Source: Candidatus Melainabacteria bacterium RIFCSPHIGHO2_02_FULL_34_12
GTDB lineage: Bacteria > Cyanobacteriota > Vampirovibrionia > 2-02-FULL-35-15
Length of the DNA stretch: 64,000 bases
Assembly: GCA_001784555.1 (NCBI GenBank)
Contig: MFRM01000005.1
Location: forward strand, 99,802 to 163,801
Direction: 5' to 3'
The notes under the pieces were generated by a model, which had not been told where the DNA came from, ran no database searches, and was given only the letters and a program-made list of their open reading frames with translations. Numbering within the stretch: the first letter of the stretch is position 1; every line of letters begins with the position of its first letter. Shown in pieces: positions 6,189 through 53,967 of this stretch. The translations under genes were made by a program, and so were the position numbers.

Positions 6189-7577
6189 ATGGCTGTAACT
6201 ACCCAGTTTAATGCTTTATTTTCCACCTCTGAAATCAAAGAACTTTTTGGATTTGAAATCCAGGGGTCTAATGAATTCTCACTTTCTACTGATTCAAGAT
6301 CAATAACAAAAGATCAAATTTTTATTCCCCTGTTCGGAGAAAAATTTGACGGACATGATTTTATAAATGATGTCATGGATAGAAATGTAAGGGCTTGCCA
6401 TGGCAAGCCCTTACCAGTGTTTTGTCAACAAGACAAATTATTTAAAGTGCAAGATAAATATAAATCAAACCTTATTCTTGTAGAAAATACACTTGAAGCT
6501 TATCAAAAACTAGCAAATTACCATAGAAAAAAACTAAAAGCAAAAGTTATTACTATCACCGGCAGCTCGGGAAAAACCACAGTAAAAGAACTTATTGCAT
6601 CTGTACTTTCACAAAAATATAAAGTTCATAAAACAGAAGCAAACTATAACAATGAAATCGGAGTTCCTAAAACCATTCTTGAAACCACACCAGATACGGA
6701 AGTGCTAGTGCTTGAACTAGCAATGAGAGCAAAAGGTGAAATCAGACTTTTATCTGAAATATCTGAACCAGACATTGCCATTATTATAAATGTTGGTTCT
6801 GCTCATATAGGACGACTTGGAAGCTTAAGTAACATCATAGAAGCTAAATGTGAAATATTTGAACATGTAAAAAAAGGTGGGATTGGGATTATACATAAGA
6901 ATGGACAATTAATTGATTATCTAAATACAAAAGATCTTAAAAATATAAATGACTTTATAAAATTTGATATTTCAGATTTAGAAGCCAAAGTTCTTTTTAA
7001 AGACGGTAAGTCAAAGTTTATTTTAGACGGAGAAGAATATTTCATTAATGCACAAGGCAAAACACATATTTTAAATTCAATCCTTGTCATAAAGCTTGCT
7101 AAAAAACTTGGCCTAAATAAGAATGAAATTCAAAATGGTCTTTCAAAATTTAAAATACCTGAAGGACGTGGTAATGTTCTTAAGATAAAGGATGAGGTGT
7201 ATATAATTGACGAATCTTATAATGCAAATCCAGATTCACTGAAGGCAGCAGTTTTAAATTTAGTTGATTCCTGGAGTGAGGACTATAAAAAAGTTTTAGT
7301 CATAGGCGAGCTGGCTGAGCTTGGAGAGCAGCAGGTGGGCTTATTAACTGAACTTGGCATATGGTTAAGAGATAAACCAATATACAAATTGATTACGGTG
7401 GGGACTAAACTTAATACGCTAGCCTCATCTTTAAGTTCTAAAAATGTTGCAAATGTTGCAAATACTGATGAGTGCTGTGCTATCTTAAATGATATTCTTG
7501 TCCCTAAAACAGTTGCACTTATAAAGGGCTCACATGTTGCAGGACTGAATAAGGTAATAAATTATTTTCTAAAATAA
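6189..7577 (+). CDS. murF: Mur ligase family, probably UDP-MurNAc-tripeptide--D-Ala-D-Ala ligase
   Basis: 462 aa; ATP-binding ITGSSGKTT motif, Mur ligase middle and C domains. Confidence 0.6.
   Translation: MAVTTQFNALFSTSEIKELFGFEIQGSNEFSLSTDSRSITKDQIFIPLFGEKFDGHDFINDVMDRNVRACHGKPLPVFCQQDKLFKVQDKYKSNLILVENTLEAYQKLANYHRKKLKAKVITITGSSGKTTVKELIASVLSQKYKVHKTEANYNNEIGVPKTILETTPDTEVLVLELAMRAKGEIRLLSEISEPDIAIIINVGSAHIGRLGSLSNIIEAKCEIFEHVKKGGIGIIHKNGQLIDYLNTKDLKNINDFIKFDISDLEAKVLFKDGKSKFILDGEEYFINAQGKTHILNSILVIKLAKKLGLNKNEIQNGLSKFKIPEGRGNVLKIKDEVYIIDESYNANPDSLKAAVLNLVDSWSEDYKKVLVIGELAELGEQQVGLLTELGIWLRDKPIYKLITVGTKLNTLASSLSSKNVANVANTDECCAILNDILVPKTVALIKGSHVAGLNKVINYFLK
6387..6414. repeat. 28-bp GTAG...CTAC-type palindromic element (perfect), in frame in murF
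   Basis: gtaagggcttgccatggcaagcccttac is its own reverse complement; encodes VRACHGKPL. Confidence 0.8.
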
Positions 7578-14531: not shown

Positions 14532-15716
14532 ATGGCATTAAGAGTAGAAGATTTTCAAAAGGGTGGTTTTGAATTAAGGCCAAAATTACCAGGGAATGGT
14601 TCACAACATCTATGGAGAGGAACTGAAGCTGAAACATATCTGGCAGCAAACAGAAAAAGAATCCCTTCTTTCTTTAGTGGACAATATGCAGATCTAACCT
14701 TAGATAAATTTTGTGAGTTAGCAGTAAAGGCTGGTTGTAAAGCAGTTGAACTTGCATGCTGGGGAAAATGTGGCATTGACGTTCAAAAAGCTGCAACTGA
14801 TGAAAAATATTGCCAAGATATTCTTGAAACTGTTGCAAAGCATGGATTGGTACTGGAATCAATTAGTAGCCATTTAGTAGGTCAAGCAATTTCAGATGAA
14901 ATTATTGATGTAAGACATAAAGGCATTTTATCGCCAGATATATGGGGAGATGGAAACCCTGTGGGTGTAAGAACTAGAGCTATTGAGAAAATGAAACTTA
15001 CTGCAATAGCAGCAAAGAATTTAAATGTAAAAGTTGTAAATGGATTTACAGGCTCAAGAACCTGGCATCAGGAAGTATATGATTTCCCACCAACTCCAGC
15101 TGAAGTTTTACATAGAGGATATGTACAATTTGCAGATGATTGGAAGCCAATACTTGATGTATTTGGAGATAACGGTCGCTATTTTGCTCTTGAAGTTCAT
15201 CCAACAGAGCAGGCATTTAACCTGCATACTGCAGATAAAGCTATGAGAGCTTTAGATGATCATGAGCATTTTGGTTTTAACTATGATCCTAGTCACTTTG
15301 AACATCAAAGGATTAAACCAGATTTAGCTGCTGCATATTTATTACCAAGAATATTCCATGTTCATGATAAGGATGCTGAAAATGTTGAAGGTAACGGAGT
15401 TCATAATGCAGGCAAATATAACGGTGGAGTAAGATTTAGCGATGCAGATGTAGGCTGGGATTTCAGGTCACTTGGAAAAGGTGGTATTAACTTTAATGCA
15501 GTTACCAGAGCTTTAAATGCATATGGAAATAAAGAGCTTATGTATATAGGACCTAGATCTAAAGAATGGGAAGATGGGAATATGGACAGAGAAGATGGAG
15601 TTATAGAATCAGGGGCACATCAAAGAACCATTGATTTTACGCCATCATACGTTGCATTTGATCAAGGAATGGCAGATGCTTCAAAAACAGCACCAACAGA
15701 TGCTCCTAAACCATAG
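14532..15716 (+). CDS. sugar phosphate isomerase/epimerase family (xylose-isomerase-like TIM barrel)
   Basis: 394 aa; SD ggagga upstream; conserved E/H/D metal-ligand pattern (ALEVHP, HVHDKD). Confidence 0.5.
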   Translation: MALRVEDFQKGGFELRPKLPGNGSQHLWRGTEAETYLAANRKRIPSFFSGQYADLTLDKFCELAVKAGCKAVELACWGKCGIDVQKAATDEKYCQDILETVAKHGLVLESISSHLVGQAISDEIIDVRHKGILSPDIWGDGNPVGVRTRAIEKMKLTAIAAKNLNVKVVNGFTGSRTWHQEVYDFPPTPAEVLHRGYVQFADDWKPILDVFGDNGRYFALEVHPTEQAFNLHTADKAMRALDDHEHFGFNYDPSHFEHQRIKPDLAAAYLLPRIFHVHDKDAENVEGNGVHNAGKYNGGVRFSDADVGWDFRSLGKGGINFNAVTRALNAYGNKELMYIGPRSKEWEDGNMDREDGVIESGAHQRTIDFTPSYVAFDQGMADASKTAPTDAPKP

Positions 15717-15825
15717 TTCTAACCTTTGCTGAGACAGTTTTTCTTAATCTTGGAAAATTAGATTATGAAAACACTGAATTTTTTGAAAGGCAGATACCTA
15801 CTCTTAAACCCCTTCTTCTACATAC

Positions 15826-17390: not shown

Positions 17391-17398
17391 TCCCTTCC

Positions 17399-17426
17399 GT
17401 AGGCGGGGTCCCGGGATCCCGCCTAC
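17399..17426. repeat. 28-bp GTAG...CTAC palindromic element, intergenic hup/oxidoreductase
   Basis: gtaggcggggtcccgggatcccgcctac, near-perfect palindrome 8 bp after the hup stop; no U-tract follows. Confidence 0.8.
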
Positions 17427-17437
17427 GTGAGATCATT

Positions 17438-20532: not shown

Positions 20533-23286
20533 ATGAAGTTTTTAAAAATTAATTTAGTCTTTTTAGCCATTCTTGTTTCTGGTTTTTATTTATTATTCTT
20601 TCAAAGTAATATTTTCTCATTCTCAAAAGAATATTCTGACTTTGCTACCCCTGAAGAACTTATAACCAGAAATCAAATTCTTTCGATGCCATGGCAAAAA
20701 TTAAACGGGCCGTTTGGCGGACAAGGATATACGATAAGATTTAGTCCAAGCAACACAAATAAAATAATTGTTACTGACTCATTTGCAGGGATTCATGTTT
20801 CAAATGACAGAGGACTTACCTGGAATGAAAGTGATGAAGGAATAGATTCACGTTCTGGAAAGTCAGGAGATGCTGTTCCAGTTTTTGTCACCACCATAGA
20901 TCCAAATAATCCAAATAGAATATGGTGTGGTGTAAAAAACGCAATGGGAGTATTTCTTTCCACAGACGGAGGAATTACATGGCAGCATAAAGATAACGGC
21001 CTGCCTAGCGGAAGTGAGGTTGAAATAAGAGGGCTTGCAGTAAAGCCAGGTGATTCGAATACTGTCTTTGCAGCAGGAGATTTAGAAGAAATAGGTCCTA
21101 TTATGGGAGCATTCCAAAGAACACAAGGAATAGTTTACAGAACTACTGATGGCGGAGAAAACTGGACCCAGGTTTTATCCGGAGGCAATCTTTTTAAGGA
21201 CATAATAATTGATCCAAATAATCCTAATACAACTTATGTAGCAAGCGGATTTTTTGACAGACATCAGCTTGAAAAATTAGAAGGTGTATATAAAAGTACT
21301 GATGGCGGGACTGTATGGTCCCAGATAAATAATGGAATAAGAAATCTTTATGTCACAAATATAAAATTTGACCCGGAAAATCCAAATATAATTTGGGGAA
21401 CAACAGGAATGATTCCTCAGTTTGACACTGATGTTGAAAATCAAGACGGCGCAATTATTGTAACTAAAGATGCAGGAATGACCTGGACAGAATCTAAAAG
21501 ACAGCGTAACAGCGGTGCACCGCAAATTTATTCAGCACTGGGAATCAGCCCGACAAATTCAAATGTAATTTATGCAGGAGCATTTGGATTTTTTGTTAAA
21601 TCGACTGATGGCGGAATGACATGGACAGAGACTGGTTTTGGTCCGCTTGGATCAAATCCTGGACATCCGATAGATATTGAAGTAGATCCAGACAATGAAA
21701 ATATTGTTTATGTAGACAGTTATGTAGGAGGGGTTTTTAAATCTACAGACGGTGGAAAAACCTGGGTAACAAATGCATTTGGATATTCCGGATCTGAAAC
21801 AAGAGGAGTGGCTGTAAGCTCTGATAATAATAATGTTTTTGCTACATCCAGATCAGGCATATTTTTAAGCAAAGATAAAGGAATAAACTGGCTGCCAGTA
21901 GGACTTGGAGATATTAAGCTGGATGAGCTTCAAGCAGTTTCTCTGAATCCTATTGATAATAATAAAATCCTTCTTGGTGACAGTCAAAATGCAATGAATT
22001 CAATATTTCTTAGTGTTGATGGAGGAATGAGCTGGAAAACAGTTTTTATGCTTTTTAATGAAGATTTTTCAGCTCGCCCAAGCAGCACAGGTTTAGACGG
22101 AGAAATTGTTTTCACTGACATAAAATGGTCTAAGTCAAATCCAAATATTGCCATTGCTTCCTGTGTAAAAAAATCATTGTTTCACGACTTTGTTGACTCA
22201 ATCGGGTGGGGAACTTTTAAATCTGTAAATGGCGGAATGACATGGACAAATAAACAAAATGGAATCTCAGGATTTAAAAATACCTGGTCTCTTGATATAG
22301 ATCCTGCAAATGAAAATATTGTTTATGCAGCTACAAATGACTCAGGCATAGTAAAAAGTATTGATGGCGGAGAAAACTGGACTCAAATAAATAATGGCTT
22401 TGATAATGAAAAATCTTTTCATTCAATATCAATTTACTCTGCAAATACAATGGTGCTTTTGGCAGGAAGTGCTAACGGACAGATTTTTAGATCTGAAGAT
22501 AATGGAGAAAGCTGGACCCCTGTATTATCTGATGTGCGTGAAAACGATAACATTGTTTCAATTGTTTTTAATCCAGTAGCATCTACACATCAGGTTTATG
22601 CCGGCGCAAATGCAACCGGATTTTATGTATCTGGTGATGATGGAAATACCTGGACTCAATTTAATGACGGTTTATTAATTCGTGAATTAGAAAATCTGGC
22701 AGTTACACCGGACGGTTCTAGTGTTTATGCAGCAACAAATGGAGGGGGGATTTTCAGGCTTCCAATAACAGGAGGCAATTTAACCCTGACCAGAAACCAA
22801 ACTGAAATCCCAAGCAATGCAGGCATAGATGCTGAAAATAATACAACTGTATCAAGCTCATCTAGCAGTGGTGGAGAAAGCCATGAAACAAGCTCAGGTG
22901 GTGTCGATGTAAATGCAAACCCTGACGATTTTTCTTTTACACTAAGTGGCAAGGCAGCACATGGGATAAAAGTTTCTTCTAAAAAACCAACAAAAAGTTT
23001 TGTCATTCTTAGTCTAGATGAAAATACAATAAATACTTTTATTAACAAGAAGGTTTTAGTTTCATCAAATTTTTCCACTAATGCTGTAAAAATTAAGCCA
23101 CCCAGTTTTATAGTAAACAGTAAAAGAAACAAAATCAAAATTTTGATTTCTATTAAATCAAAAGACAGCCTGAAAGATATTATTACAGGTGAATTGCCAG
23201 AAGAAATTAAATTATCATTTAATCTTTTACTTCCAGGCACAGAAATAATTAAGCAAACAGAGATTCCCTTAACGTACGAAGAATAA
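20533..23286 (+). CDS. secreted BNR/Asp-box repeat protein (sortilin/Ycf48-like beta-propeller)
   Basis: 917 aa; N-terminal hydrophobic signal; >10 S/T-x-D-G-G-x-T-W Asp-box repeats. Confidence 0.7.
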   Translation: MKFLKINLVFLAILVSGFYLLFFQSNIFSFSKEYSDFATPEELITRNQILSMPWQKLNGPFGGQGYTIRFSPSNTNKIIVTDSFAGIHVSNDRGLTWNESDEGIDSRSGKSGDAVPVFVTTIDPNNPNRIWCGVKNAMGVFLSTDGGITWQHKDNGLPSGSEVEIRGLAVKPGDSNTVFAAGDLEEIGPIMGAFQRTQGIVYRTTDGGENWTQVLSGGNLFKDIIIDPNNPNTTYVASGFFDRHQLEKLEGVYKSTDGGTVWSQINNGIRNLYVTNIKFDPENPNIIWGTTGMIPQFDTDVENQDGAIIVTKDAGMTWTESKRQRNSGAPQIYSALGISPTNSNVIYAGAFGFFVKSTDGGMTWTETGFGPLGSNPGHPIDIEVDPDNENIVYVDSYVGGVFKSTDGGKTWVTNAFGYSGSETRGVAVSSDNNNVFATSRSGIFLSKDKGINWLPVGLGDIKLDELQAVSLNPIDNNKILLGDSQNAMNSIFLSVDGGMSWKTVFMLFNEDFSARPSSTGLDGEIVFTDIKWSKSNPNIAIASCVKKSLFHDFVDSIGWGTFKSVNGGMTWTNKQNGISGFKNTWSLDIDPANENIVYAATNDSGIVKSIDGGENWTQINNGFDNEKSFHSISIYSANTMVLLAGSANGQIFRSEDNGESWTPVLSDVRENDNIVSIVFNPVASTHQVYAGANATGFYVSGDDGNTWTQFNDGLLIRELENLAVTPDGSSVYAATNGGGIFRLPITGGNLTLTRNQTEIPSNAGIDAENNTTVSSSSSSGGESHETSSGGVDVNANPDDFSFTLSGKAAHGIKVSSKKPTKSFVILSLDENTINTFINKKVLVSSNFSTNAVKIKPPSFIVNSKRNKIKILISIKSKDSLKDIITGELPEEIKLSFNLLLPGTEIIKQTEIPLTYEE

Positions 23287-24756
23287 AATATCCTCTTCTA
23301 ATTTAATCCCTTTAATTTTTGCAAGCCCAGGCCACGTGTTTCGCCATCGTAGGGTTGAGGTTACCTCAACCCTGGCATGATCGGGAATCTCAAATTCATA
23401 CGTCGTTATGTCGGATTTACCTGCCATAATTCTTGTATCACTTGCAATAAAAACATTCCACCAATCAGGCGGTGGAATGTCTCTTATACCGGGCGCACCA
23501 CGGTGTGCCCCTACAAATCGCGTACCATATTCACTATATGTTTCGGAGAGAATCTTTGCAAATAATTTTCCTGGTTTGTTTTTTAAATTGCCTGCATAAA
23601 TTGGTAATTTTGGACCTTTGATTTGTACGGGTTGTAGAGACGGGGTTACCCCGTCTCTACGGTTTTTATATTTAACATCAATAACAAGAATTGCATTTCT
23701 CATCGGAGAACCTGTTGGGAAGCTATGACCGAAGTTGTTGTTTGAGACTTTTGCGGTGACGATTAGTATATTGTTGCCATTTGTTGAGACGCCCCGATGG
23801 GGCGTCTTTACGGTGATCATTAGATCAACATATTTCTTCCTAAACTCATGGGGATTGCTGCTCAAGAAACTATGACTATGAATCTGGTGGTAAGGACGTG
23901 ATTTTTGTTTTATATTTGGATTATCAACGATTGAAAAACGCTCTGTCAGAGCGTCTCTACCGGGTTTCATATGACAACTTTGACACTGCACACCTTTTTT
24001 TGCTGCCGGACTATTTGCCCATTCTGTAAATGTTGAGTAAATTTGTACATTTCCATTTGAGCCATCATGGCATTTAGCACAGATGAGACTTGTTTTATAA
24101 AGCGAATTATATTTTAATTCCTCATTTTCGCCGTATTTTTGCTCTGTTTCATCATCAATTCGTTCTATTTTTATTGAGTCCTTAATTGGTCCAAACCTTA
24201 TATCCTTCATTCCTTTGCATGTTCGTAAAATATTTAAACCTTCGACTCCTTTTTTAAATGGATTTTGATCTACACTTTCAATCTTATGACAGAAATCACA
24301 GGAGATACCGTTTGTTTTTTTTGCATTGCGTTTTCTTAAATCAATATCATTAAGACGCCCTGCCGGGGCGTCTCTACCGGATAATGTTGCTTCAGGGTTG
24401 TGGCAGAGAGCACAATTCCCATTTTTATCAGGGTGATCTTCTTTAAATCGTTTATAAACTTCTAAAAAGAAAGGATTGTTTTGGCTCATGGAATGTTTAT
24501 CATCTTTCCATTCTTTGTAATAAGCTATGTGACATGAAGAACAATTTTTTAAAAGTAATTCCCCTTCTTTACTGGATGTGTTTGGGTCAAACCATTTATA
24601 GACGGTGCATGTATCGTTGTGTGTTGTAGAAGCGTATTCCAATACGCCTCTACTTTGTTTTGGTGATGAAGCAATGACGTGAAACGTTTGTGAAATAAAA
24701 ATAAATGACAAAATCGTTGTAGAAATTAAAACAATAATCTTTTTATAAATAGACAT
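23269..24756 (-). CDS. pentaheme c-type cytochrome (NrfA-like size; family uncertain)
   Basis: 495 aa; signal peptide; five CxxCH motifs (CSSCH, CALCH, CDFCH, CAKCH, CQSCH); contains six palindromic-element copies. Confidence 0.65.
   Translation of the reverse strand: MSIYKKIIVLISTTILSFIFISQTFHVIASSPKQSRGVLEYASTTHNDTCTVYKWFDPNTSSKEGELLLKNCSSCHIAYYKEWKDDKHSMSQNNPFFLEVYKRFKEDHPDKNGNCALCHNPEATLSGRDAPAGRLNDIDLRKRNAKKTNGISCDFCHKIESVDQNPFKKGVEGLNILRTCKGMKDIRFGPIKDSIKIERIDDETEQKYGENEELKYNSLYKTSLICAKCHDGSNGNVQIYSTFTEWANSPAAKKGVQCQSCHMKPGRDALTERFSIVDNPNIKQKSRPYHQIHSHSFLSSNPHEFRKKYVDLMITVKTPHRGVSTNGNNILIVTAKVSNNNFGHSFPTGSPMRNAILVIDVKYKNRRDGVTPSLQPVQIKGPKLPIYAGNLKNKPGKLFAKILSETYSEYGTRFVGAHRGAPGIRDIPPPDWWNVFIASDTRIMAGKSDITTYEFEIPDHARVEVTSTLRWRNTWPGLAKIKGIKLEEDILFFVR
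23349..23375. repeat. GTAG...CTAC-family palindromic element in cytochrome gene
   Basis: gtagggttgaggttacctcaaccctgg; 11-bp arms; encodes ARVEVTSTLR. Confidence 0.65.
23634..23660. repeat. GTAG...CTAC palindromic element (27 bp) in cytochrome gene
   Basis: gtagagacggggttaccccgtctctac; encodes RRDGVTPSL. Confidence 0.85.
23784..23811. repeat. GTAG...CTAC-family palindromic element in cytochrome gene
   Basis: ttgagacgccccgatggggcgtctttac; encodes VKTPHRGVS. Confidence 0.7.
23945..23960. repeat. partial or degenerate element (right terminus gtctctac) in cytochrome gene
   Basis: gtcagagcgtctctac; encodes GRDALTE. Confidence 0.4.
24351..24377. repeat. GTAG...CTAC-family palindromic element in cytochrome gene
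   Basis: taagacgccctgccggggcgtctctac; encodes GRDAPAGRL. Confidence 0.75.
24636..24663. repeat. GTAG...CTAC palindromic element in cytochrome gene
   Basis: gtagaagcgtattccaatacgcctctac (2 mismatches); encodes SRGVLEYAS. Confidence 0.7.
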
Positions 24757-24769
24757 TCATATTTATTTT

Positions 24770-25069
24770 TTATGCTGCCCGATTTCTTTGAATTGTATTT
24801 GTATTGAAAGTAATTGCTTGCTCATTGGTACCTTCCCACTCATTGTTTCCATCAGGTTTTATTTGAACATCAACTACCCTGGACCACTTTACTCCACTTG
24901 CAGTTGGAGTATAACCTAATAAAACAAATCTTGAAAAGTCCTGGCGATCGGTAAGAGCAGTTTCTTTAATCACAGGTTTTTCTCGCTCGGATTCTAACTC
25001 AGTCCGTTTTGGCTCAAATTGAAGGATTGATCTTCCATTTCCTTGACTTGTAAACAGATTAACTTTCAT
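24770..25069 (-). CDS. hypothetical small protein between aconitase and cytochrome genes
   Basis: 99 aa ORF co-oriented with its neighbours. Confidence 0.3.
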   Translation of the reverse strand: MKVNLFTSQGNGRSILQFEPKRTELESEREKPVIKETALTDRQDFSRFVLLGYTPTASGVKWSRVVDVQIKPDGNNEWEGTNEQAITFNTNTIQRNRAA

Positions 25070-25139
25070 AATGCCTCTCCCTTTTATTTATTTTATAGAA
25101 AATTCTAAGCTTAAACATAACATTAATCAAGTATTTCTT

Positions 25140-27779
25140 TCACAATCTATTCTTCTCACTAAACCATTTCATAAACTCAGTTACATTTCCTTTAAATTGA
25201 TCTATAAGTACTTTCTTAAAAAGATTTGGCTCAGAACCAGCTCTAAAAACTTCTATTTTATATGGAGTGTCCAGAACATGCTCACAGATAATTGAGAATT
25301 CCTCATTCGCCGATACGCCGATACGCCGGTTCGCCGACACGTTTTTCCTAATCTTTACTTCTACATCTCTTTTATCAGCATCTAATTTATCTAAACCATA
25401 AATTGAAATTAAATCTTCTCTATCGAGCTTTGCTCTGTCAGCAGGGTTTTTATATGTCATATAAAATAACCCCTGTTCAATTGCATTTTCTCTGTGAATT
25501 GGGGCAAAGCTTTCGGCTATACAGACCCTTGCCCTTAAGTGTCTTGGAATAAATGCTGCTGCTTCACGTGAACTGCCCGAACCAAAAAGTTTTCCACCTA
25601 CCATCACTGAACCATTATTATTTTTCTTATATTCTTTTCCTAGATTATAGTAATACTGAGGATCTCTATTTTCCTGAGAAGCCTTACTTTCAAAGAATCC
25701 AAGCTCAAGTTCAAGAAGATTTCCTCTTTTTGGAATATAGTTTATTCCTGCAGCAGATAAATCATCTGTGGTTACATTGTCACCAAGAACTATTAGTACA
25801 GGAATATTCTCAAACTTATCTGGCGGGATGTCGTACATATCATCAGGAAGTGCTGAAATTGTTTTTCCATCATAAAGTACTTCTATTTCTTTGGATTTGT
25901 CTTTTGGTGCAGGAAGAATAAATGCTGGTCTTTTGCCATCTGGGTTATTAAAATCATTTGAGATAACGGGTGTTAATTTTGCTTCGCTTGTAGGATTTGA
26001 AAGTTTTATTTTTACTTCTTTGCCGGATTCGTCTTTAGTTATAAATGATCTTGAGTCTGGATCATAACTATCGAATCTTCCACAACTGGCTAGATATACT
26101 ACAACTGCAGGACTTGCCAGATAAACCTGATCGATTTTAGATTTAGTGCCTGCTCTTCCCATGAAATTTCTGTTAAAGGATCTAACAGATGCAGTATCTT
26201 CCTCCGGAGCAAATCCCATACCGATACAAGGACCACATGCACTGTCAAGAAGAATAAGATGTCCCTTTTCAATGAGTTCTTTAATAGTTGTGTTTGACTG
26301 AACTGAAAGCCAGCCGTCACGTGAGCCGTAAGTAACGCTTATAGGAGTTTTTCTTTTTGCTTTATTTTTTGCAAGCTGTAAATTTGCCCACACGGCAGCT
26401 TCAATATCATCTTTTCCAGAATGTGTGCAGCTTCCAATACTGCCTGAGCTGATGTCAAGGCTTAATTTCCTTTTTTCATAGGATTTTTTAATGTCTATTT
26501 CCTGTACGACGAAATTAATAAGGGTTTCTTGTGGGGTGGCGCGTAAAACGGGCGTACCGCGGCATACTCCTACAAAATCTTTTACCTTTTCTTTGTCCAC
26601 CTTACCGTCTTTTAAAAAATCTTTGTATCGAGAAAATATTTCTTCGTTTATAAAATTAATAACTTTTGGAATTTCATCCAGGTAAAAAACGTTTTTTGGA
26701 TTTCCAGGAAGTGCCAGTGCAGGATGTATTTCTTTTGAGAGGTCATATTCAAGAACTTTATCATAATATTTCCCAGGGTCTTTTATGACCTCAGGATCCG
26801 GATTTAAATCTTTTAGATTTTTTTCAGTCCATTTTGCCAGATCAGATCTATTTCTTGATTCAAGATATTTTACTACCTCTTCATCAGGAGGAAAAAGCCC
26901 TGTACCCATTCCTCCGTCTACGAGGGAATTTGTAATAGAACTTCTGCCCACGACAGAAACTGATTTTACTCCTTCTCCAAAAAACTCAATATAGCTTCCA
27001 TTTCCTTCATTTCCAAAAAGTCTGATAATATCCCTGTTTAATAATTGAACAATTTGTTTTGGTTCGGTTCCTTCAGGCAATGAACCCTTAAGATGAACCC
27101 CAATTATAGGATTTCTGTCTACTGCCATAGGAAGTCCGGCTGCAAGTGATTTTGCAATGCTCCAGCCGCCTTTTCCAATAGCAAACATACCCATTCCGCC
27201 AGCTGTTGGTGTATGTGAATCAGAGCCAAAAAGCACTCCGCCTGGCATATCAAAATATTCATCGCTTACTCTGTGGCAGATACCGTTTCCAGGAAGTGAA
27301 AAAACTATTCCTCGCTTACTTGAGCTGGTTCCTAAAAACTTAATTCCTTCTTTGTCCTGAATAATTGCCTGTTCAATTCCATAATCGACTTTTATATTAT
27401 GGTCATAATATAAAACTGTAAGAATGTCAGACTGATCTCTTCCAAGAAGTTTAAATAAAAGTTCTGCCTGAAGAAGAAGTAATTTTCCTGTAGCATCCTG
27501 AATTAACAGGAGATCTGGTCTTAAATAAATAATAGAACCTTTTATAACCGGATCTCCTGCATCCAGATGTGCATACCAGATTTTTTCAATTGCAGTTAAT
27601 GGGTTTTTAATTTTCCCGACATATTTAGATTCACTGAATATTTTTGGTCTTGTGTTTTTTATCTTTAAAACAAAGTTTTTATCTTCAGGTGTATCCGGGT
27701 AACCATCTAATTCCCTTCGTGGATCATATACAATTGGTTCTGGAATTTTAGGTGGCTTAGGAATAATTTGAGTAGTCAT
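25140..27779 (-). CDS. aconitase family protein (aconitate hydratase-like) with ~60 aa N-terminal extension
   Basis: 879 aa; IQDATG, SHTPTAGGMG, CGPCIGMG, SGSSREAAA aconitase motifs. Confidence 0.7.
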   Translation of the reverse strand: MTTQIIPKPPKIPEPIVYDPRRELDGYPDTPEDKNFVLKIKNTRPKIFSESKYVGKIKNPLTAIEKIWYAHLDAGDPVIKGSIIYLRPDLLLIQDATGKLLLLQAELLFKLLGRDQSDILTVLYYDHNIKVDYGIEQAIIQDKEGIKFLGTSSSKRGIVFSLPGNGICHRVSDEYFDMPGGVLFGSDSHTPTAGGMGMFAIGKGGWSIAKSLAAGLPMAVDRNPIIGVHLKGSLPEGTEPKQIVQLLNRDIIRLFGNEGNGSYIEFFGEGVKSVSVVGRSSITNSLVDGGMGTGLFPPDEEVVKYLESRNRSDLAKWTEKNLKDLNPDPEVIKDPGKYYDKVLEYDLSKEIHPALALPGNPKNVFYLDEIPKVINFINEEIFSRYKDFLKDGKVDKEKVKDFVGVCRGTPVLRATPQETLINFVVQEIDIKKSYEKRKLSLDISSGSIGSCTHSGKDDIEAAVWANLQLAKNKAKRKTPISVTYGSRDGWLSVQSNTTIKELIEKGHLILLDSACGPCIGMGFAPEEDTASVRSFNRNFMGRAGTKSKIDQVYLASPAVVVYLASCGRFDSYDPDSRSFITKDESGKEVKIKLSNPTSEAKLTPVISNDFNNPDGKRPAFILPAPKDKSKEIEVLYDGKTISALPDDMYDIPPDKFENIPVLIVLGDNVTTDDLSAAGINYIPKRGNLLELELGFFESKASQENRDPQYYYNLGKEYKKNNNGSVMVGGKLFGSGSSREAAAFIPRHLRARVCIAESFAPIHRENAIEQGLFYMTYKNPADRAKLDREDLISIYGLDKLDADKRDVEVKIRKNVSANRRIGVSANEEFSIICEHVLDTPYKIEVFRAGSEPNLFKKVLIDQFKGNVTEFMKWFSEKNRL
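25305..25340. repeat. xTxCGCCG octamer tandem repeat, in frame in aconitase gene
   Basis: ttcgccgatacgccgatacgccggttcgccgac; encodes VSANRRIGVSANEE. Confidence 0.6.
26550..26573. repeat. decayed copy of the GTAGGGGCGTA-subfamily element in aconitase gene
   Basis: gggcgtaccgcggcatactcctac; right half matches copies at 41140 and 32269, left arm mutated; encodes VGVCRGTPVL. Confidence 0.4.
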
Positions 27780-27798
27780 GATTTAATTTTACACGAAT

Positions 27799-27827
27799 GT
27801 AGAGACATTGCGGCGCAATGTCTCTAC
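27799..27827. repeat. 29-bp GTAG...CTAC palindromic element, intergenic; supplies TAG stop of nagB-like gene
   Basis: gtagagacattgcggcgcaatgtctctac; 20 bp upstream of aconitase start. Confidence 0.85.
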
Positions 27828-28630
27828 AAATATTTTGCTGCGTCTTTATCAGTAATCACAATAAGATTTTTATGTAGTAATAATGCACTTGCAGATGCTT
27901 TTTTTATATTTACTTTTTTATCTCTAAATGCTAACTGAATTGACTTTGCTTTTTCTTCTCCATATGCAATAAGAAGTGCCTTTCTGGATTTTAAAATGTC
28001 TTGTATACCCAAGGTGATGCCCTTTACAGGGGCTTGCTGCAGCAAGCCCCTACATCGGATCTTTTTTATAACTATTGGATGTAGATCCACCACTCTCATT
28101 TTTGAATCTATTGATGACTTCCCTGTAGTGTTATAAGCAATATGTGGATCATACTCAGCTCCAATCCCCAGAATTATTAAATCAATTCCTTTATTTTTTC
28201 TTATGAACTCATTAGCTTTTTTTATTGTTTCTTTTGGATTTTTTGATCCATCCATTAGAAAAACATTCTTTGGATTTACTGTTTTAAATAAAGGTTTTAG
28301 TTTGTCTCTTATTTCAAGATTAAAACTAATCGAGGAATCAGGTTTTACCCCTAGATTTTCATCAATCTGAAAAAGTTTTACTTTTTTCCATTTGTTTGGG
28401 TTTAAACTAACATCTTTTGAGATTAATTTATATAAATCATCAATGGTTTTTCCTGCTGCAAGACCTATAAGCGAATCCGGCTTTTTTAATATTTGGTTTT
28501 TAATTACTTCAAAGGCTTTTTTATCCCCTGATTTTTTGTCTTTTGTAATTAATATTTTTCTTTTCATTTGTTTGGCAAATCTTTTATAAAGACGGTAAGA
28601 TAGAGCAATGATTTTTATTATATTTTGCAC
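27824..28630 (-). CDS. glucosamine-6-phosphate deaminase / 6-phosphogluconolactonase family (NagB/Pgl)
   Basis: 268 aa; LIILGIGAEYDPHIAYN resembles the NagB/Pgl GxGxDGH motif. Confidence 0.55.
   Translation of the reverse strand: MQNIIKIIALSYRLYKRFAKQMKRKILITKDKKSGDKKAFEVIKNQILKKPDSLIGLAAGKTIDDLYKLISKDVSLNPNKWKKVKLFQIDENLGVKPDSSISFNLEIRDKLKPLFKTVNPKNVFLMDGSKNPKETIKKANEFIRKNKGIDLIILGIGAEYDPHIAYNTTGKSSIDSKMRVVDLHPIVIKKIRCRGLLQQAPVKGITLGIQDILKSRKALLIAYGEEKAKSIQLAFRDKKVNIKKASASALLLHKNLIVITDKDAAKYL
28026..28053. repeat. GTAG...CTAC-family element (GGGGCTTGC subfamily) in nagB-like gene
   Basis: acaggggcttgctgcagcaagcccctac; encodes CRGLLQQAPVKG. Confidence 0.7.
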
Positions 28631-31339: not shown

Positions 31340-32794
31340 TTAATTTTCTTTGTTCTTTTTTGGTTTAAAACCCTTTAAGAGGCTGCTTTGTGGCTTTATT
31401 TGTGATCTTTGCATATTATTTGGCATAACATTTCCAGGATTCATCATGCCTTTTCCCTGTCCGCTAAACATACCCATCATTTTTTTCATTTTTGAGAATT
31501 CACTGACTAATTGATCTGCATCTTTTTCTTTTAGTCCGGCCCCGCGTGCAATTCTTCTTTTTCTGCTTAGATTTAAAAGAGATGGTTTCATTTTTTCTTC
31601 TTTACTCATGCTTTGAATAAGGGATTTAAACTTTTTCATTTTTACTTCACCTTCAGAAAGTAATTTTTCCTGAGTGTTTTTATCTATGTTTACTCCCATA
31701 TTCCCAAGCATTCCACCCATGCCCATCATATTAAATATATTTGAAAAATCACCCATCTTTGACATCATGTTTTGAGCAGAAAGAAAAGATTCAAAATTAA
31801 AATCACCTAACAATTGTTTTTCTATTTCTTTAGCCTCGTCTTCTTTTATTTTTTCCTGGGCTTGTTCTACCAGAGTTAGTACATCACCCATTCCAAGGAT
31901 TCTAGATGCCATGCGCTCAGGATAAAACTCCTGAAGATCGTCAATTTTTTCTCCAACACCTGCAAACTTTACTCGTTTTCCTGTTTCCTCTACTACAGAA
32001 AGAGCGGCGCCGCCTCTGGCATCACCGTCCAGCTTTGTAAGAATAATTCCTGTAATTCCAATCTGTGTGTTAAATGCAGCTCCTATATTTGCTGCTTCCT
32101 GACCCAACATAGAATCTATTACCAAAAGTTTTTCATCTGGTTCAACAGTTCTGTCTATAAGCAAAAGCTCAGCCATCATTTCTGTATCGATCTGTAATCT
32201 CCCTGCGCTGTCAAGGATGACTACGTCGTGGTTATTTTTTTTTGCGTGGTCAATAGCGTTTTGCGCCAGTAGGGGCGTATGGCCATACGCCCCTATATCG
32301 CCTGGCATTTGATATACTGCTATGCCAATTTGATTTCCTAGTATATTTAATTGCTCCACAGCAGCAGGACGTTTTAAATCTAATGGCACTAAAAGCGGGT
32401 TTTTACCTTTTTTCTTTAAAAAGTTTGCCAGCTTTGCACAGGTAGTAGTTTTACCGGCACCCTGAAGACCGAGCATTAATATTACAGATGGCGTAGCATT
32501 GATGTTGAGACGCTCCATTGGGGTGTCTGTACCGCCAAGAAGATTTGTAAGCTCATCACTAATTATTTTTATAAAAAACTCGCTGGGAGAAACTCCCTTT
32601 AAAACTTCCTGACCAATTGCTTTTTCACGTACCTTATTTGTAAATGTTTTAATGGCTTTTAAACTAACGTCAGCATCTATAAGTGCTCTTTTTATCTCAC
32701 GTATGGCAATATCAATATTTTCTTCAGTAATTTTTGACTGAGAGCGAAGAGATTTAAAGATGTTTTGGAGATTTTCTGTTAATTGATCGAACAT
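31340..32794 (-). CDS. ffh: signal recognition particle protein Ffh
   Basis: 484 aa; GLQGAGKTT, DTAGR, KLDGDARGG, M-domain Met-rich tail. Confidence 0.9.
   Translation of the reverse strand: MFDQLTENLQNIFKSLRSQSKITEENIDIAIREIKRALIDADVSLKAIKTFTNKVREKAIGQEVLKGVSPSEFFIKIISDELTNLLGGTDTPMERLNINATPSVILMLGLQGAGKTTTCAKLANFLKKKGKNPLLVPLDLKRPAAVEQLNILGNQIGIAVYQMPGDIGAYGHTPLLAQNAIDHAKKNNHDVVILDSAGRLQIDTEMMAELLLIDRTVEPDEKLLVIDSMLGQEAANIGAAFNTQIGITGIILTKLDGDARGGAALSVVEETGKRVKFAGVGEKIDDLQEFYPERMASRILGMGDVLTLVEQAQEKIKEDEAKEIEKQLLGDFNFESFLSAQNMMSKMGDFSNIFNMMGMGGMLGNMGVNIDKNTQEKLLSEGEVKMKKFKSLIQSMSKEEKMKPSLLNLSRKRRIARGAGLKEKDADQLVSEFSKMKKMMGMFSGQGKGMMNPGNVMPNNMQRSQIKPQSSLLKGFKPKKNKEN
32269..32296. repeat. 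GTAG...CTAC palindromic element (GGGGCGTA subfamily) in ffh
   Basis: gtaggggcgtatggccatacgcccctat; encodes GDIGAYGHTPLL. Confidence 0.8.
32505..32532. repeat. degenerate element in ffh, related to copy at 23784
   Basis: ttgagacgctccattggggtgtctgtac; encodes GTDTPMERL. Confidence 0.5.
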
Positions 32795-35050: not shown

Positions 35051-36596
35051 CGGTTACGAAGTGTTTTTCAATAACCTCTTTATTTAAAAATCCCTGAATA
35101 TTGTCCCATGGCAGTTTTATTTTCTCATCCCACTTTTTAAAAATAAAATAATCTGCATTTATTTTTTCTTCTTTCAATGCTTTATTAAAGCTGCCAAGAG
35201 TACTTCCATATTTATATGCTTTTACAAGTGCTTTATTTATGCTTCTGTCTCCGCGTGATATAAGTGCCTGAATAAGTGACCATCTGTAACTTTCTGCTCT
35301 AAAATCCACTCCTATTTGATGCAGTTCTTTTGAATAATATTTTAATTTTTTTTCAGCGTCTTTATCTACTCCATACCACTGGAATGGTGTACCTGCTTTT
35401 GGTACAAAGACAGAACTTCCCCAGACTAGCTTTTTAGTTTTGTTTTTTAATTTAATTTCTTTCAAGAAATTAACAGTTTCTTTTAAATCACTATCGGTTT
35501 CATGTGGTAATCCAACCATTCCATAAAGTTTTATAGATTTAAAACCAGCATTATAAATAGTCTCAATAGAGTTTGTTATGGTCTGGTTGCTGACTTTTTT
35601 ATTTATTATCTCGCGCAGTCTTTCTGAACCTGTTTCAACTGCCATGGTTATTGACTTTGCGCCTAATTCAAAAAGTCCGTTCGCAAGATTTTTAGATATA
35701 GTATCTGCTCTTACTGATGCAATCTGGACATGGATTTTATTTTCCTTGTTTTGTCCATTGAGATATTCAATCAATCCTTCAAATTCCGGATGTTGTGTAA
35801 CCGATGCTCCGAGCAACCCGATTTTATTTGTATGTTTTAAACCAAAATCAATTACTGGAATTAAACTTTCTTTTAAATCAGGTGTACGGAAAGGAAGTGA
35901 ACCGTAACTAGCTAAACAAAACCTGCAAAGCTCAGGACAGCTGCGTACTACCTCGACAATAAAAGTATCAGGCCAAACGGAATTTGGGGTAAGGATGGAT
36001 GAGGAGGTAAGGTTACCACGATTTGTTTTTCGTTTTGTTGTAGGGAACAGTCGCAACTGTTCCCTACAAGAGGGAACATAAACACCATCTAATTTTGCCA
36101 AGGCATTTAATTTTTCCTCACGGTTTAAATCTTTTATTTCAACAATTTTATTTATAAAACCTTCTGCAATTTCTTCTAAATCGCCAGTCAGAAAGAAATC
36201 AAAATTATCACAAAATGGCTCAGGATTTGCATTTGGGACCTGTCCGCCACAAAATATAATAGGATCCTTTTCGCCTCTTTCATTTGAATATAAAGGAATA
36301 TTATTTTTTTCTAACATTGAAAAAATATTTTTATAATCCAGCTCCCACGAAAATGAAAAACCTACGTATGAGGGTCTAGCATTGAAACCTGATTTACCGG
36401 AATTTTCTTCTATATCCGTAAACCACCGTATGGCTTTTAAATCCTCGTTCTGATTAAATAACTTCCATGCAGTTTGAAAACCCAGACTTGCCATACCGAC
36501 AGAGTATATATTTGGAAATGCAATTGCCATGAGGCTTGCATCTCTTTGCTTAGCAGGTATGTTAATTATGATTTTTTCTTCTTGAAATAAAGACAT
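35016..36596 (-). CDS. B12-binding-domain radical SAM protein
   Basis: 526 aa; CPELCRFC (CxxxCxxC) radical SAM motif; N-terminal B12-binding-like domain. Confidence 0.7.
   Translation of the reverse strand: MSLFQEEKIIINIPAKQRDASLMAIAFPNIYSVGMASLGFQTAWKLFNQNEDLKAIRWFTDIEENSGKSGFNARPSYVGFSFSWELDYKNIFSMLEKNNIPLYSNERGEKDPIIFCGGQVPNANPEPFCDNFDFFLTGDLEEIAEGFINKIVEIKDLNREEKLNALAKLDGVYVPSCREQLRLFPTTKRKTNRGNLTSSSILTPNSVWPDTFIVEVVRSCPELCRFCLASYGSLPFRTPDLKESLIPVIDFGLKHTNKIGLLGASVTQHPEFEGLIEYLNGQNKENKIHVQIASVRADTISKNLANGLFELGAKSITMAVETGSERLREIINKKVSNQTITNSIETIYNAGFKSIKLYGMVGLPHETDSDLKETVNFLKEIKLKNKTKKLVWGSSVFVPKAGTPFQWYGVDKDAEKKLKYYSKELHQIGVDFRAESYRWSLIQALISRGDRSINKALVKAYKYGSTLGSFNKALKEEKINADYFIFKKWDEKIKLPWDNIQGFLNKEVIEKHFVTAKRGSEGFYNS
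36040..36067. repeat. 28-bp GTAG...CTAC palindromic element (perfect) in radical SAM gene
   Basis: gtagggaacagtcgcaactgttccctac; sister of copy at 42210. Confidence 0.85.
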
Positions 36597-46832: not shown

Positions 46833-46877
46833 GTCATTGCGAGAAGTCCGCCTGAGGCGGACGACGAAGCAATCTCA
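46833..46877. repeat. TGTCATTGCGAG...GAAGCAATC family copy B (left arm of MITE-like inverted pair)
   Basis: tgtcattgcgagaagtccgcctgaggcggacgacgaagcaatctca; internal palindrome gtccgcctgaggcggac. Confidence 0.65.
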
Positions 46878-46926
46878 TATTGCGATTAAGCTTAAGGAAG
46901 GTTTATTATTACCGTTATTTGCGTTG

Positions 46927-46966
46927 TGAGATTGCTTCACCCGCCTAAGGCGGGTTCGCAATGACA
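46927..46966. repeat. TGTCATTGCGAG...GAAGCAATC family copy C (inverted right arm)
   Basis: tgagattgcttcacccgcctaaggcgggttcgcaatgaca is the reverse complement of copy B with a variant core; ends 8 bp before the stop of the 912-aa gene. Confidence 0.65.
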
Positions 46967-53851: not shown

Positions 53852-53924
53852 GGGCCCATAGCTCAGTTGGTAGAGCGTTTCGTTCGCAACGAAGAGGTGG
53901 CGGGTTCGAATCCCGCTGGGTCCA
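53852..53924 (+). tRNA. tRNA-Ala (anticodon CGC)
   Basis: cloverleaf with G3:U70 wobble pair, anticodon loop TTCGCAA, T-loop GGTTCGAATCC. Confidence 0.8.
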
Positions 53925-53935
53925 GAGAACAATTA

Positions 53936-53963
53936 GTAGAGCCGCGATTAATCGCGGCTCTAC
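53936..53963. repeat. 28-bp GTAG...CTAC palindromic element (perfect) between tRNA-Ala and sigma factor 3' ends
   Basis: gtagagccgcgattaatcgcggctctac is its own reverse complement; T-rich flanks on both strands, so a possible bidirectional terminator. Confidence 0.85.
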
Positions 53964-53967
53964 TGTC

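Follow-up and report, generated by a model that had tools for sequence, protein, structure and literature searches.

Short palindromic repeats with a conserved GTAG end have been described as super-families of repetitive extragenic palindromic (REP) sequences, cyanobacterial ones among them, in which variable stem positions are complementary and some copies lie in frame within genes (Di Nocera et al. 2013, PMC3733652). The same survey recalls the in-frame Rickettsia palindromic elements (RPEs; Ogata et al. 2000), and a preprint on REPINs (REP doublets forming hairpins) reports that these persist at a position while the REPIN found there changes, with the suggestion that REP-associated tyrosine transposases (RAYTs) modify or replace them (REPORTH, bioRxiv 10.1101/2024.10.14.618302). 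Here we report on a comparable family in 'Candidatus Melainabacteria' bacterium RIFCSPHIGHO2_02_FULL_34_12, within a stretch of 64,000 nucleotides (contig MFRM01000005.1, positions 99,802 to 163,801), hereafter the window. Six of its palindromes (S1 to S6) lie in a single gene for a pentaheme cytochrome c. Our comparisons of sequences indicate that this open reading frame (ORF) probably encodes a functional, vertically conserved, Sec-exported cytochrome with the architecture of the solved structure 5ZE8, studded at permissive sites by elements of a REP/RPE-like family.

By consensus, members of the family are perfect palindromes of 27-30 bp, their 14-nt arms made up of a conserved GTAGRGRC terminus and about six variable bases, around a centre of 0-5 nt. 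As in GTAG-tagged REPs and REPINs, these are short GC-rich hairpin repeats with a conserved GTAG end, a variable complementary stem and many subfamilies; in-frame intragenic copies are on record for GTAG-tagged REPs as well, in Opitutus terrae and Thauera (PMC3733652), and, as with REPINs, an orthologous position is retained while the sequence at it changes. In the GTAG-tagged REPs, however, the tag is unpaired and stands at one end, whereas here GTAG(R)G is mirrored as C(Y)CTAC at the opposite end and both are part of the stem. REPINs are doublets of inverted REPs, whereas all copies of this family are single palindromes, and REPs are mostly extragenic, typically downstream of genes, whereas here about 89% are intragenic. 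RPEs are similar in being in-frame palindromic repeats in genes that still appear functional, at tolerant positions and with several copies per gene possible (summarised in PMC3733652). Such in-frame presence is found here in the six copies within an open frame of 495 codons, and also in further genes, those for SRP54 and homoserine dehydrogenase among them. Elements of the RPE-1 type measure about 100-150 bp and occur in reduced obligate intracellular Alphaproteobacteria; the present elements, of 27-30 bp and with GTAGRGRC termini, are set apart from them by description and by size. Six short copies in a 1.5-kb gene and systematic reuse of the same codons by different palindromes across orthologs do not figure in the RPE descriptions in their summarised form. 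A literature search found no prior description of such palindromes in Melainabacteria.

With a calibrated, looser detector, which also catches palindromes outside the family (as in the aconitase gene, below), 25 GC-rich palindromes were found in the window (35.4% G+C), block shuffles averaging 2.05, and the strict terminal pattern gave five matches where 0.00 were expected. The preliminary description of this stretch had called the cytochrome gene a hotspot, and the counts agree: 7 of the 25 palindromes fall within its 1.49 kb (binomial P = 1.2e-6; scan-statistic P = 3e-4), while each remaining gene carries at most two palindromes by the loose criterion and at most one family element. Sixteen related loci (228 kb, 94% of it coding) contain 87 elements, 77 of them (~89%) within ORFs. 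A strict pattern with 13-nt arms, which misses most cytochrome copies and was used solely as a control between phyla, matches 32 copies in the 228 kb of Melainabacterial loci, and 569 kb from 73 loci of other phyla give no match. Subfamilies recur across genes and genomes: the arms and core of S6 in the ortholog locus L006 (TAGAGTCGAGGT-N-ACCTCGACTCTA) are met again in the BNR gene of L014 with a single loop base changed, and the palindrome at window position 36036 recurs in L010. As different genes and genomes have identical arms and cores, or entire palindromes, in common, copying between loci must occur. A permissive Rfam search of positions 22000-26000 returned no match. The element family is real, dispersed, lineage-specific and mostly intragenic.

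All six palindromes that had been reported for the cytochrome gene are present in frame (Table 1). Folded as single-stranded DNA they reach -6.9 to -13.6 kcal/mol (z -3.2 to -6.2), and together they encode about 57 residues (about 55 in the earlier count), with a net gain over the short ortholog forms of only about 30. S3, previously taken for a half copy at 23945, extends over the full length: two C->T changes on the gene strand have eroded one of its arms, and its counterpart in the L008 ortholog is a perfect palindrome.

The host gene is under purifying selection. A protein identical to that of the window (100%) is found in a groundwater 'Candidatus Melainabacteria' metagenome-assembled genome, and on nine contigs from several sources, and 37 further homologues share 48-70% identity. 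The five CxxCH motifs and about 100 invariant columns are kept in all 33 aligned homologues (34 orthologs in the alignment), and when 23 homologues from other phyla are added (57 in total) the five motifs, M263, H295, H344, P347 and T348 are still invariant. Candidate axial ligands are H88, H293, H295, H344 and M263. Between the window gene and eight orthologs dN/dS comes to 0.06-0.16 once element columns are masked, and the branch leading to the window shows no acceleration (0.077; sister L006, 0.068). The window protein departs 16 times from 215 highly conserved columns, nine of these departures being at residues 414-430; outside the element-affected segments there are five, equal to the number in the nearest relative. 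Orthologs with 0-1 elements (L001, L009 and L010) are equally conserved. In at least eight loci the gene lies downstream of aconitase and convergent with a BNR-like gene. These data do not support one of the explanations first offered, that constraint is relaxed on a decaying gene, nor the remark that a multiheme cytochrome is unexpected among reduced-looking content: it is a stable, syntenic gene of the lineage, and the housekeeping genes of the window are ordinary ones of free-living type.

The invariably convergent neighbour (20533-23286, + strand) encodes a BNR/Sortilin-VPS10/PSII_BNR-like protein of about 910 aa and overlaps the cytochrome gene by a few codons; the pairing of the two, which among the loci mentioned above includes that of the distant ortholog L011, suggests a functional link. 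Directly upstream of the cytochrome lies a 99-aa ORF (24770-25069, - strand) with no Pfam match, and small ORFs are likewise placed in L006 and L094.

The 495-aa product consists of an N-terminal five-heme region followed by a C-terminal Ig-like beta domain. The signal peptide and five CxxCH motifs of the preliminary description are present, the former (MSIYKK-IIVLISTTILSFIFI-SQTFHVIA/SS) being judged Sec-like by eye. Pfam matches are to generic multiheme models only (PF13435, PF22113 and PF14522). That to PF13435 (cytochrome c554 / c-prime; 37.6 bits against a gathering cut-off of 20.8, residues 72-157) is a match to a generic multiheme-motif model and says little on function. NrfA (PF02335) was not reached (11.5 bits against 24.1, with PDB NrfA chains at E 0.1-0.2), NrfB models remained below cut-off (13-18 bits against 167-184), and the NCBIfam ExtKL model (NF040886) gave 25.9 bits against a cut-off of 250. 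Membership of MccSep/ExtKL, NrfA, NrfB or OmcA/MtrC was rejected, scores being far under the curated cut-offs, as were those for other NCBIfam equivalogs. Among the relatives initially put forward, a c554-type match was found, while NrfA and Hao-like families, like NrfB, fell short. The closest solved relative is 5ZE8, the pentaheme cytochrome c552 of Thermochromatium tepidum. It comes first both by sequence (profile against PDB, E 5.7e-11, three collinear stretches) and by fold (Foldseek E 4.8e-8, probability 1.00, 287 columns; no other match <1e-3), although identity is only ~20%, and the C-terminal domain pairs with the C-terminal region of 5ZE8 by profile ('hamPTGaPfRN') as well as by fold.

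The polysulfide reductase MccSep/ExtKL has a five-heme plus Ig-like layout too, with Sec or Cys in a D-G-U-P loop (bioRxiv 10.1101/2025.11.18.688581). Common to 5ZE8, MccSep/ExtKL and the present family are five N-terminal CxxCH motifs and a C-terminal Ig-like domain with an H-x-x-P-T-G-x-P-x-R-N-type loop. By comparison of motifs only, D-G-U-P of MccSep is replaced here by T348-G349-S350-P351, with Ser and not Sec or Cys, and the family appears to be a relative of MccSep/ExtKL, not a member. Palindrome-encoded inserts, which distinguish the present proteins, have been reported for neither.

A first AlphaFold2 (AF2) model, with a mean predicted local distance difference test score (pLDDT) of 48, returned only generic beta-sandwich noise in a fold search; it was uninformative, so a deeper alignment was needed. 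In the second model, built from 57 sequences (predicted TM-score 0.54), the C-terminal domain is confident (pLDDT 80-97), and there S4 and S5 are placed in beta-hairpin loops and S6 at a turn and the start of a strand. The heme domain stays below pLDDT 50 even in this model. The proposal to map the inserts onto a predicted structure could thus be carried through for S4-S6, and S1-S3 were unmappable. All six copies leave the invariant residues untouched, and the disruption of heme ligands that might have pointed to a pseudogene was not found among them. At the element sites homologues from other phyla have short loops of nearly fixed length: the segments measure 6 aa against 18 in the window at S2, 13 against 18 at S3, 10 against 18 at S4, 12 against 19 at S5 and 15 against 18 at S6. 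Ortholog identity to the window is 0.06-0.22 in insert columns and 0.68 in the remaining mature protein. S2 is present in 12 of the 34 orthologs as RDAPxGRL-type peptides; other orthologs have a three-residue 'DNN'. The suggestion that this protein tolerates loop insertions well stands up to these comparisons and to the filling of all six sites in other orthologs (below), with the qualification that such tolerance is not unique to the cytochrome, SRP54 orthologs being equally element-rich per residue.

To locate element sites, ortholog DNA was threaded onto the protein alignment. The cytochrome family has about ten discrete palindrome sites, seven of them common to at least two genomes, and all six sites of the window are filled elsewhere too. 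S1 is filled in L007 (a neighbouring linker position in L021 and L022), S2 in L006 and L008 (decayed in L007, L009 and L010), and S3 in L006, by a different palindrome over the same codons, and in L008, by a perfect one. S4 is filled in L006, L007, L008, L009 and L014, and throughout the large ortholog clade, by palindromes with unrelated interiors (for example GACGCCCC, GGGGCACGCC, GATACGCC, GACGCGAT and GGGCGGGTTT). S5 is filled in L007, L011 and L019, and S6 in L006, L007, L011 and L019. AT-rich decayed remnants are seen at S4 and S5 of L001. Palindromes at a shared site usually differ in their interiors and keep their termini and symmetry, and the sites outlast saturated synonymous divergence (dS 0.9 to >3).

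At S3 the encoded peptides vary (GRDALTERF, GRGIPSERL, RRDAPAERL) and the DNA is still palindromic. S6 can be compared in one register across four orthologs: of 11 inner pairs two are variable, both are fully compensated at third codon positions (GTT/TCA versus GTC/TCG; AGG/ACC, AGA/ACT and AGT/ACA) and none is broken. This clean count comes from S6 only, since counts of compensated changes at S1-S5 are confounded by register shifts arising from unequal loop lengths. Drift of the S3 peptide and compensation at S6, with DNA palindromy kept, imply that the constraint or process acts on nucleic acid. Mismatches in sense-strand stems comprise 36 A.C and 24 G.T, with no G.T excess and no sign of selection on an mRNA hairpin.

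Shared sites are not confined to the cytochrome: 15 of 29 sites are shared overall, and the pattern is also seen in the SRP54, homoserine dehydrogenase, glucosamine-6-P isomerase-like and aconitase genes. The essential SRP54/Ffh gene (31340-32794, element at 32270-32295; orthologs in L001, L006 and L009) has four sites across four genomes, two of them each common to three genomes, with different interiors. In the spacer beside a GFO/IDH/MocA oxidoreductase gene, four genomes carry a GTAG palindrome with completely different interiors, the neighbour on the opposite side being an HU gene in L006, L008 and L009. Cytochrome orthologs are the most element-rich genes of several loci (7, 4, 4, 3 and 3 elements), with 2.1-2.8 elements per kb in element-rich orthologs against 0.35-0.4 per kb in the flanks; those of L001, L009, L010 and L011 have 0-1, and the window copy, with six sites filled together, has the highest load among 16 orthologs. 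Averaged over the family, the cytochrome has 4.2 elements per 1000 aa and SRP54 4.1, so it does not take an extracytoplasmic cytochrome to reach such a load.

In a neighbour-joining tree of conserved columns, even sister sequences differ in which sites are filled. S2 is filled in P0006, P0004 and P0003 and empty in their sisters P0017, P0014 and P0016, while S5 and S6 are common to the clade of the window and the distant P0031; in P0005 an element has decayed via an internal 6-nt deletion. Between three close sisters (11-18% divergence), DNA divergence peaks at S1, S2, S3, a further site and S4 and reaches into the flanks, which fits allelic recombination of loop 'cassettes' or local hypermutation near palindromes. 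The alleles of L092, L093 and L095 (alignment A3, columns 361-420, 741-840 and 921-1000) are 82-89% identical, and their divergence is concentrated at element sites and flanks.

Table 1. Cytochrome gene, its motifs, palindromes and related features (positions in the window unless a locus is named; z, folding score relative to shuffles)
Feature	Position	Strand	Description	Evidence
Pentaheme cytochrome c gene	23269..24756	-	intact, 495 aa, predicted secreted	ORF list, Pfam, homologues
Sec-type signal peptide	24667..24756	-	~residues 1-30 (MSIYKK / hydrophobic core / VIA-SS)	reading by eye; one predicted N-terminal helix, 2-29
Heme motif 1, CSSCH	24529..24543	-	C72-H76	invariant across alignments of 34 orthologs and of 57 family members (other phyla included)
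Heme motif 2, CALCH	24400..24414	-	C115-H119	invariant, same alignments (34; 57)
Heme motif 3, CDFCH	24286..24300	-	C153-H157	invariant, same alignments (34; 57)
Heme motif 4, CAKCH	24067..24081	-	C226-H230	invariant, same alignments (34; 57)
Heme motif 5, CQSCH(M)	23971..23985	-	C258-H262, M263	invariant, same alignments (34; 57)
C-terminal Ig-like beta-sandwich	23272..23859	-	~residues 300-495, conserved GHSFPTGSPMRN motif	pLDDT 80-97 in second AF2 model
S1	24626..24653	.	gene strand GTAGAGGCGTATTGGAATACGCTTCTAC; peptide SRGVLEYAST; linker from signal peptide to first conserved Cys	12 pairs, 1 mismatch; -9.1 kcal/mol, z -6.1
S2	24351..24377	.	GTAGAGACGCCCC GGC AGGGCGTCTT; peptide GRDAPAGRL; 7 residues past heme motif 2	z -3.2
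S3	23934..23960	.	GTAGAGACGCTCTG A CAGAGCGTTTTT; peptide GRDALTERF; directly past heme motif 5	z -3.6
S4	23783..23811	.	GTAAAGACGCCCC ATC GGGGCGTCTCAAC; peptide VKTPHRGVST; loop between predicted strands 310-317 and 329-339	z -5.9
S5	23634..23660	.	GTAGAGACGGGGT A ACCCCGTCTCTAC; peptide RRDGVTPSLQ; perfect 13+1+13; loop between predicted strands 354-363 and 377-380	-13.6 kcal/mol, z -6.2
S6	23349..23373	.	AGGGTTGAGGT A ACCTCAACCCTAC; peptide (A)RVEVTSTLR; predicted turn 458-462 and start of strand 463-472	z -5.0
Degenerate GTAG-type remnant	23491..23514	.	gene strand GTAGGGGCACACCGTGGTGCGCCC; peptide FVGAHRGAP	8/9 pairs; z 0.16
Inverted repeat, 11/12 bp	23451..23482	.	AGACATTCCACC / GGTGGAATGTTT	right arm = host WWNVF codons; left arm replaces LGIPAQ codons
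GFO/IDH/MocA spacer palindromes	17398-17427 (window); 15717-15754 (L006); 6951-6980 (L008); 15622-15657 (L009)

The family and its enrichment, purifying selection on the host gene, the sharing of sites, the C-terminal loop location and the keeping of a DNA palindrome while its peptide changes are direct observations, and the best reading of them is that REP/RPE-like elements accumulate at about ten permissive sites of the cytochrome family. Most copies would land in genes because ~93% of the genome is coding, and the survivors would be those that keep the frame, avoid the TAG phase and lie in structurally permissive loops, where the encoded peptides of 9-10 residues, rich in R, G, D, P, T and S, may be tolerated as loop extensions. 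The cytochrome family would offer about ten such long-lived sites, of which the window copy happens to fill six. RAYT-like single-strand transposition, or conversion that draws on other copies, may spread or replace the elements, filled and empty loop cassettes may be shuffled by allelic recombination, and palindromy may be kept by replacement or by hairpin-templated repair, not by selection on mRNA hairpins.

Several observations weigh against accumulation at permissive sites. First, neither the flanks nor close filled/empty pairs yielded a clean empty site, a target motif or a target-site duplication, because the flanks are themselves mosaic or divergent; targeting of a locally favourable DNA structure, the third reading first offered, is neither favoured nor disfavoured by these comparisons. 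Second, filled and empty forms are 12-24 nt apart and never differ by the 27-28-nt length of an element; S6 brings almost no length change, and 'insertion' may be the wrong word there. Third, loop placement and exposure of S1-S3 are suggested by the alignment alone, given the low confidence of the heme domain. Fourth, no RAYT/Y1 or other transposase was found among the 48 window proteins (Pfam, E <= 1e-5) or in the Pfam lists of the ortholog loci (~160 kb of related sequence), unlike in REP-RAYT systems (Melainabacteria were not among the lineages surveyed in PMC3733652), so that mobility of the elements is something we infer. No Ccs/Ccm cytochrome maturation gene was found among the same window proteins or in the annotated ortholog loci.

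A further difficulty lies in a rewrite specific to the window at 23451-23514 (~residues 411-430), which escaped the preliminary description. There 'HG..GI.FRKIA..LGIPAQ', present in 13 of 13 other orthologs compared, has become 'TRFVGAHRGAPGIRDIPPP', five residues shorter in the alignment, and nine otherwise highly conserved positions (residues 414-430) are overwritten. The rewritten DNA contains a GTAG-type remnant and an inverted repeat (Table 1). The former was considered as a seventh element and rejected: its ends are family-like, its folding is no better than that of shuffles, and it is a degenerate remnant only. The latter we infer to be a local template-switch inverted duplication. This is the only place where element-related DNA reaches conserved residues; the overwriting could impair the protein, and it is the best argument for some functional cost. 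The segment belongs to an excursion specific to Melainabacteria, for which outgroups have only 2 aa and the model has low confidence, and its loss may be tolerated.

A more far-reaching explanation goes a step beyond accumulation and supposes an active, sequence-guided process in these Melainabacteria: GTAGRGRC ends would be recognised, and perfect palindromes made anew or exchanged at fixed codon positions, by a RAYT-like enzyme or by hairpin-templated synthesis. On this view interiors turn over while the sites outlast synonymous saturation, and adjacent host coding sequence is occasionally captured, as at 23451-23482. We hold this to be conceivable and rather unlikely.

It is also possible, though we give it low probability, that the palindromes, instead of being inserted mobile DNA, arise and stay perfect where they are through hairpin-templated (template-switch or fold-back) synthesis, in which one arm is copied over the other and adjacent host sequence can be captured, an explanation that partly overlaps with accumulation at permissive sites. 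One arm of the inverted repeat is conserved host coding sequence and the repeat word has no dispersed copies, every other match being the host WWNV codons of orthologs; S6 and the non-palindromic strand that other orthologs have there are equal in length. The compensation of arm differences at third codon positions, the absence of filled and empty forms exactly one element length apart and the divergence peaks of close sisters at and around the sites are also in keeping with synthesis in place. Such synthesis does not, however, account for the return of the arms and core of the L006 S6 in L014's BNR gene or for the palindrome of window position 36036 in L010, which require copying between loci, and the constancy of the GTAGRGRC termini beside variable interiors speaks for a sequence-specific protein and not for a generic replication error. 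The host-derived repeat taken alone has a chance probability of ~0.03 in this gene by our own estimate.

Might the hairpins instead serve this gene, as mRNA structures pacing translation or export for heme attachment, or as cassettes diversifying exposed loops? The standing of several cytochrome orthologs as the most element-rich genes of their loci, the persistence of sites beyond synonymous saturation and the local divergence peaks at element sites between close sisters would agree with such a role. We nevertheless consider it improbable: stem mismatches show no G.T excess on the sense strand, Rfam gave no match, orthologs with hardly any elements (L001, L009 and L010) are equally conserved, cytoplasmic housekeeping genes such as SRP54 have an equal density, and occupancy is patchy even between sisters.

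That the window copy is turning into a pseudogene, its open frame being a leftover, is very improbable. The copy does have the highest element load of the 16 orthologs, a unique rewrite of a conserved 20-aa segment that accounts for 9 of its 16 departures, and a slightly shortened C-terminus. Against this, 495 codons remain open with the heme motifs and about 100 invariant positions kept, dN/dS is low, the window branch does not exceed its sister's in length, departures outside element segments are as few as in the nearest relative, the rewritten segment is the lineage-specific excursion that outgroups reduce to 2 aa, and the identical protein recurs on nine contigs. Finally, palindromes can in principle stem from chimeric reads, but an assembly or sequencing artefact is next to inconceivable when the same family occurs in independent NCBI, ENA, JGI and Logan assemblies at orthologous codon positions and always in frame.

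Other repeats deserve mention beside the cytochrome copies. A perfect family palindrome at 53935-53964 lies 11 nt downstream of a tRNA-Ala gene (53852-53924), and another at 27798-27828 lies within the 44-nt spacer that separates the aconitase gene from the glucosamine-6-P isomerase-like one; both could act as transcript-end hairpins, though they have no T-run. Aconitase orthologs share a coding palindrome (GGCTCTCTGCCAGATGGAATAGAGCC-like) at one position (L001 6042-6069, L006 7718-7743 and L010 6479-6504), which is host sequence since it lacks GTAG ends. A second, unrelated repeat family resembles transposable elements of the miniature inverted-repeat type (MITEs): a copy of ~130 nt is intergenic at 46833-46966, with terminal repeats GTCATTGCGAG...CTCGCAATGAC and internal GC hairpins. 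This MITE-like element lies in frame in the cytochrome orthologs P0002, P0015, P0016, P0020, P0035 and P0036, and in several cytochrome orthologs it adds 25-45 residues (VIARS..ATKQS...EIASS..RND). Its GACG/CGTC-containing arms resemble CGTC-tagged REPs (PMC3733652).

Intragenic coding palindromes, known mainly from Rickettsia and a few REP-rich bacteria, are hereby found in an uncultured sister lineage of Cyanobacteria, in a distinct type of element that is mostly intragenic and has symmetric GTAG...CTAC ends. The main value of the locus lies in the evidence across orthologs for long-lived sites at which palindromes are maintained at the DNA level. The cytochrome family amounts to a natural map of insertion tolerance, with about ten positions that take 7-10 extra residues without loss of constraint, and for annotation the elements explain many odd segments of the 'RDAPxGRL', 'VETPxRGVS' and 'AGLKPAP' types in proteins predicted from metagenomes. 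Were active replacement or templating to prove true, it would bear on the long persistence of REP-like sequences and on selfish DNA as a source of new protein loops, and the elements would then serve as a lasting means of rewriting protein loops instead of being a passive insertion load.

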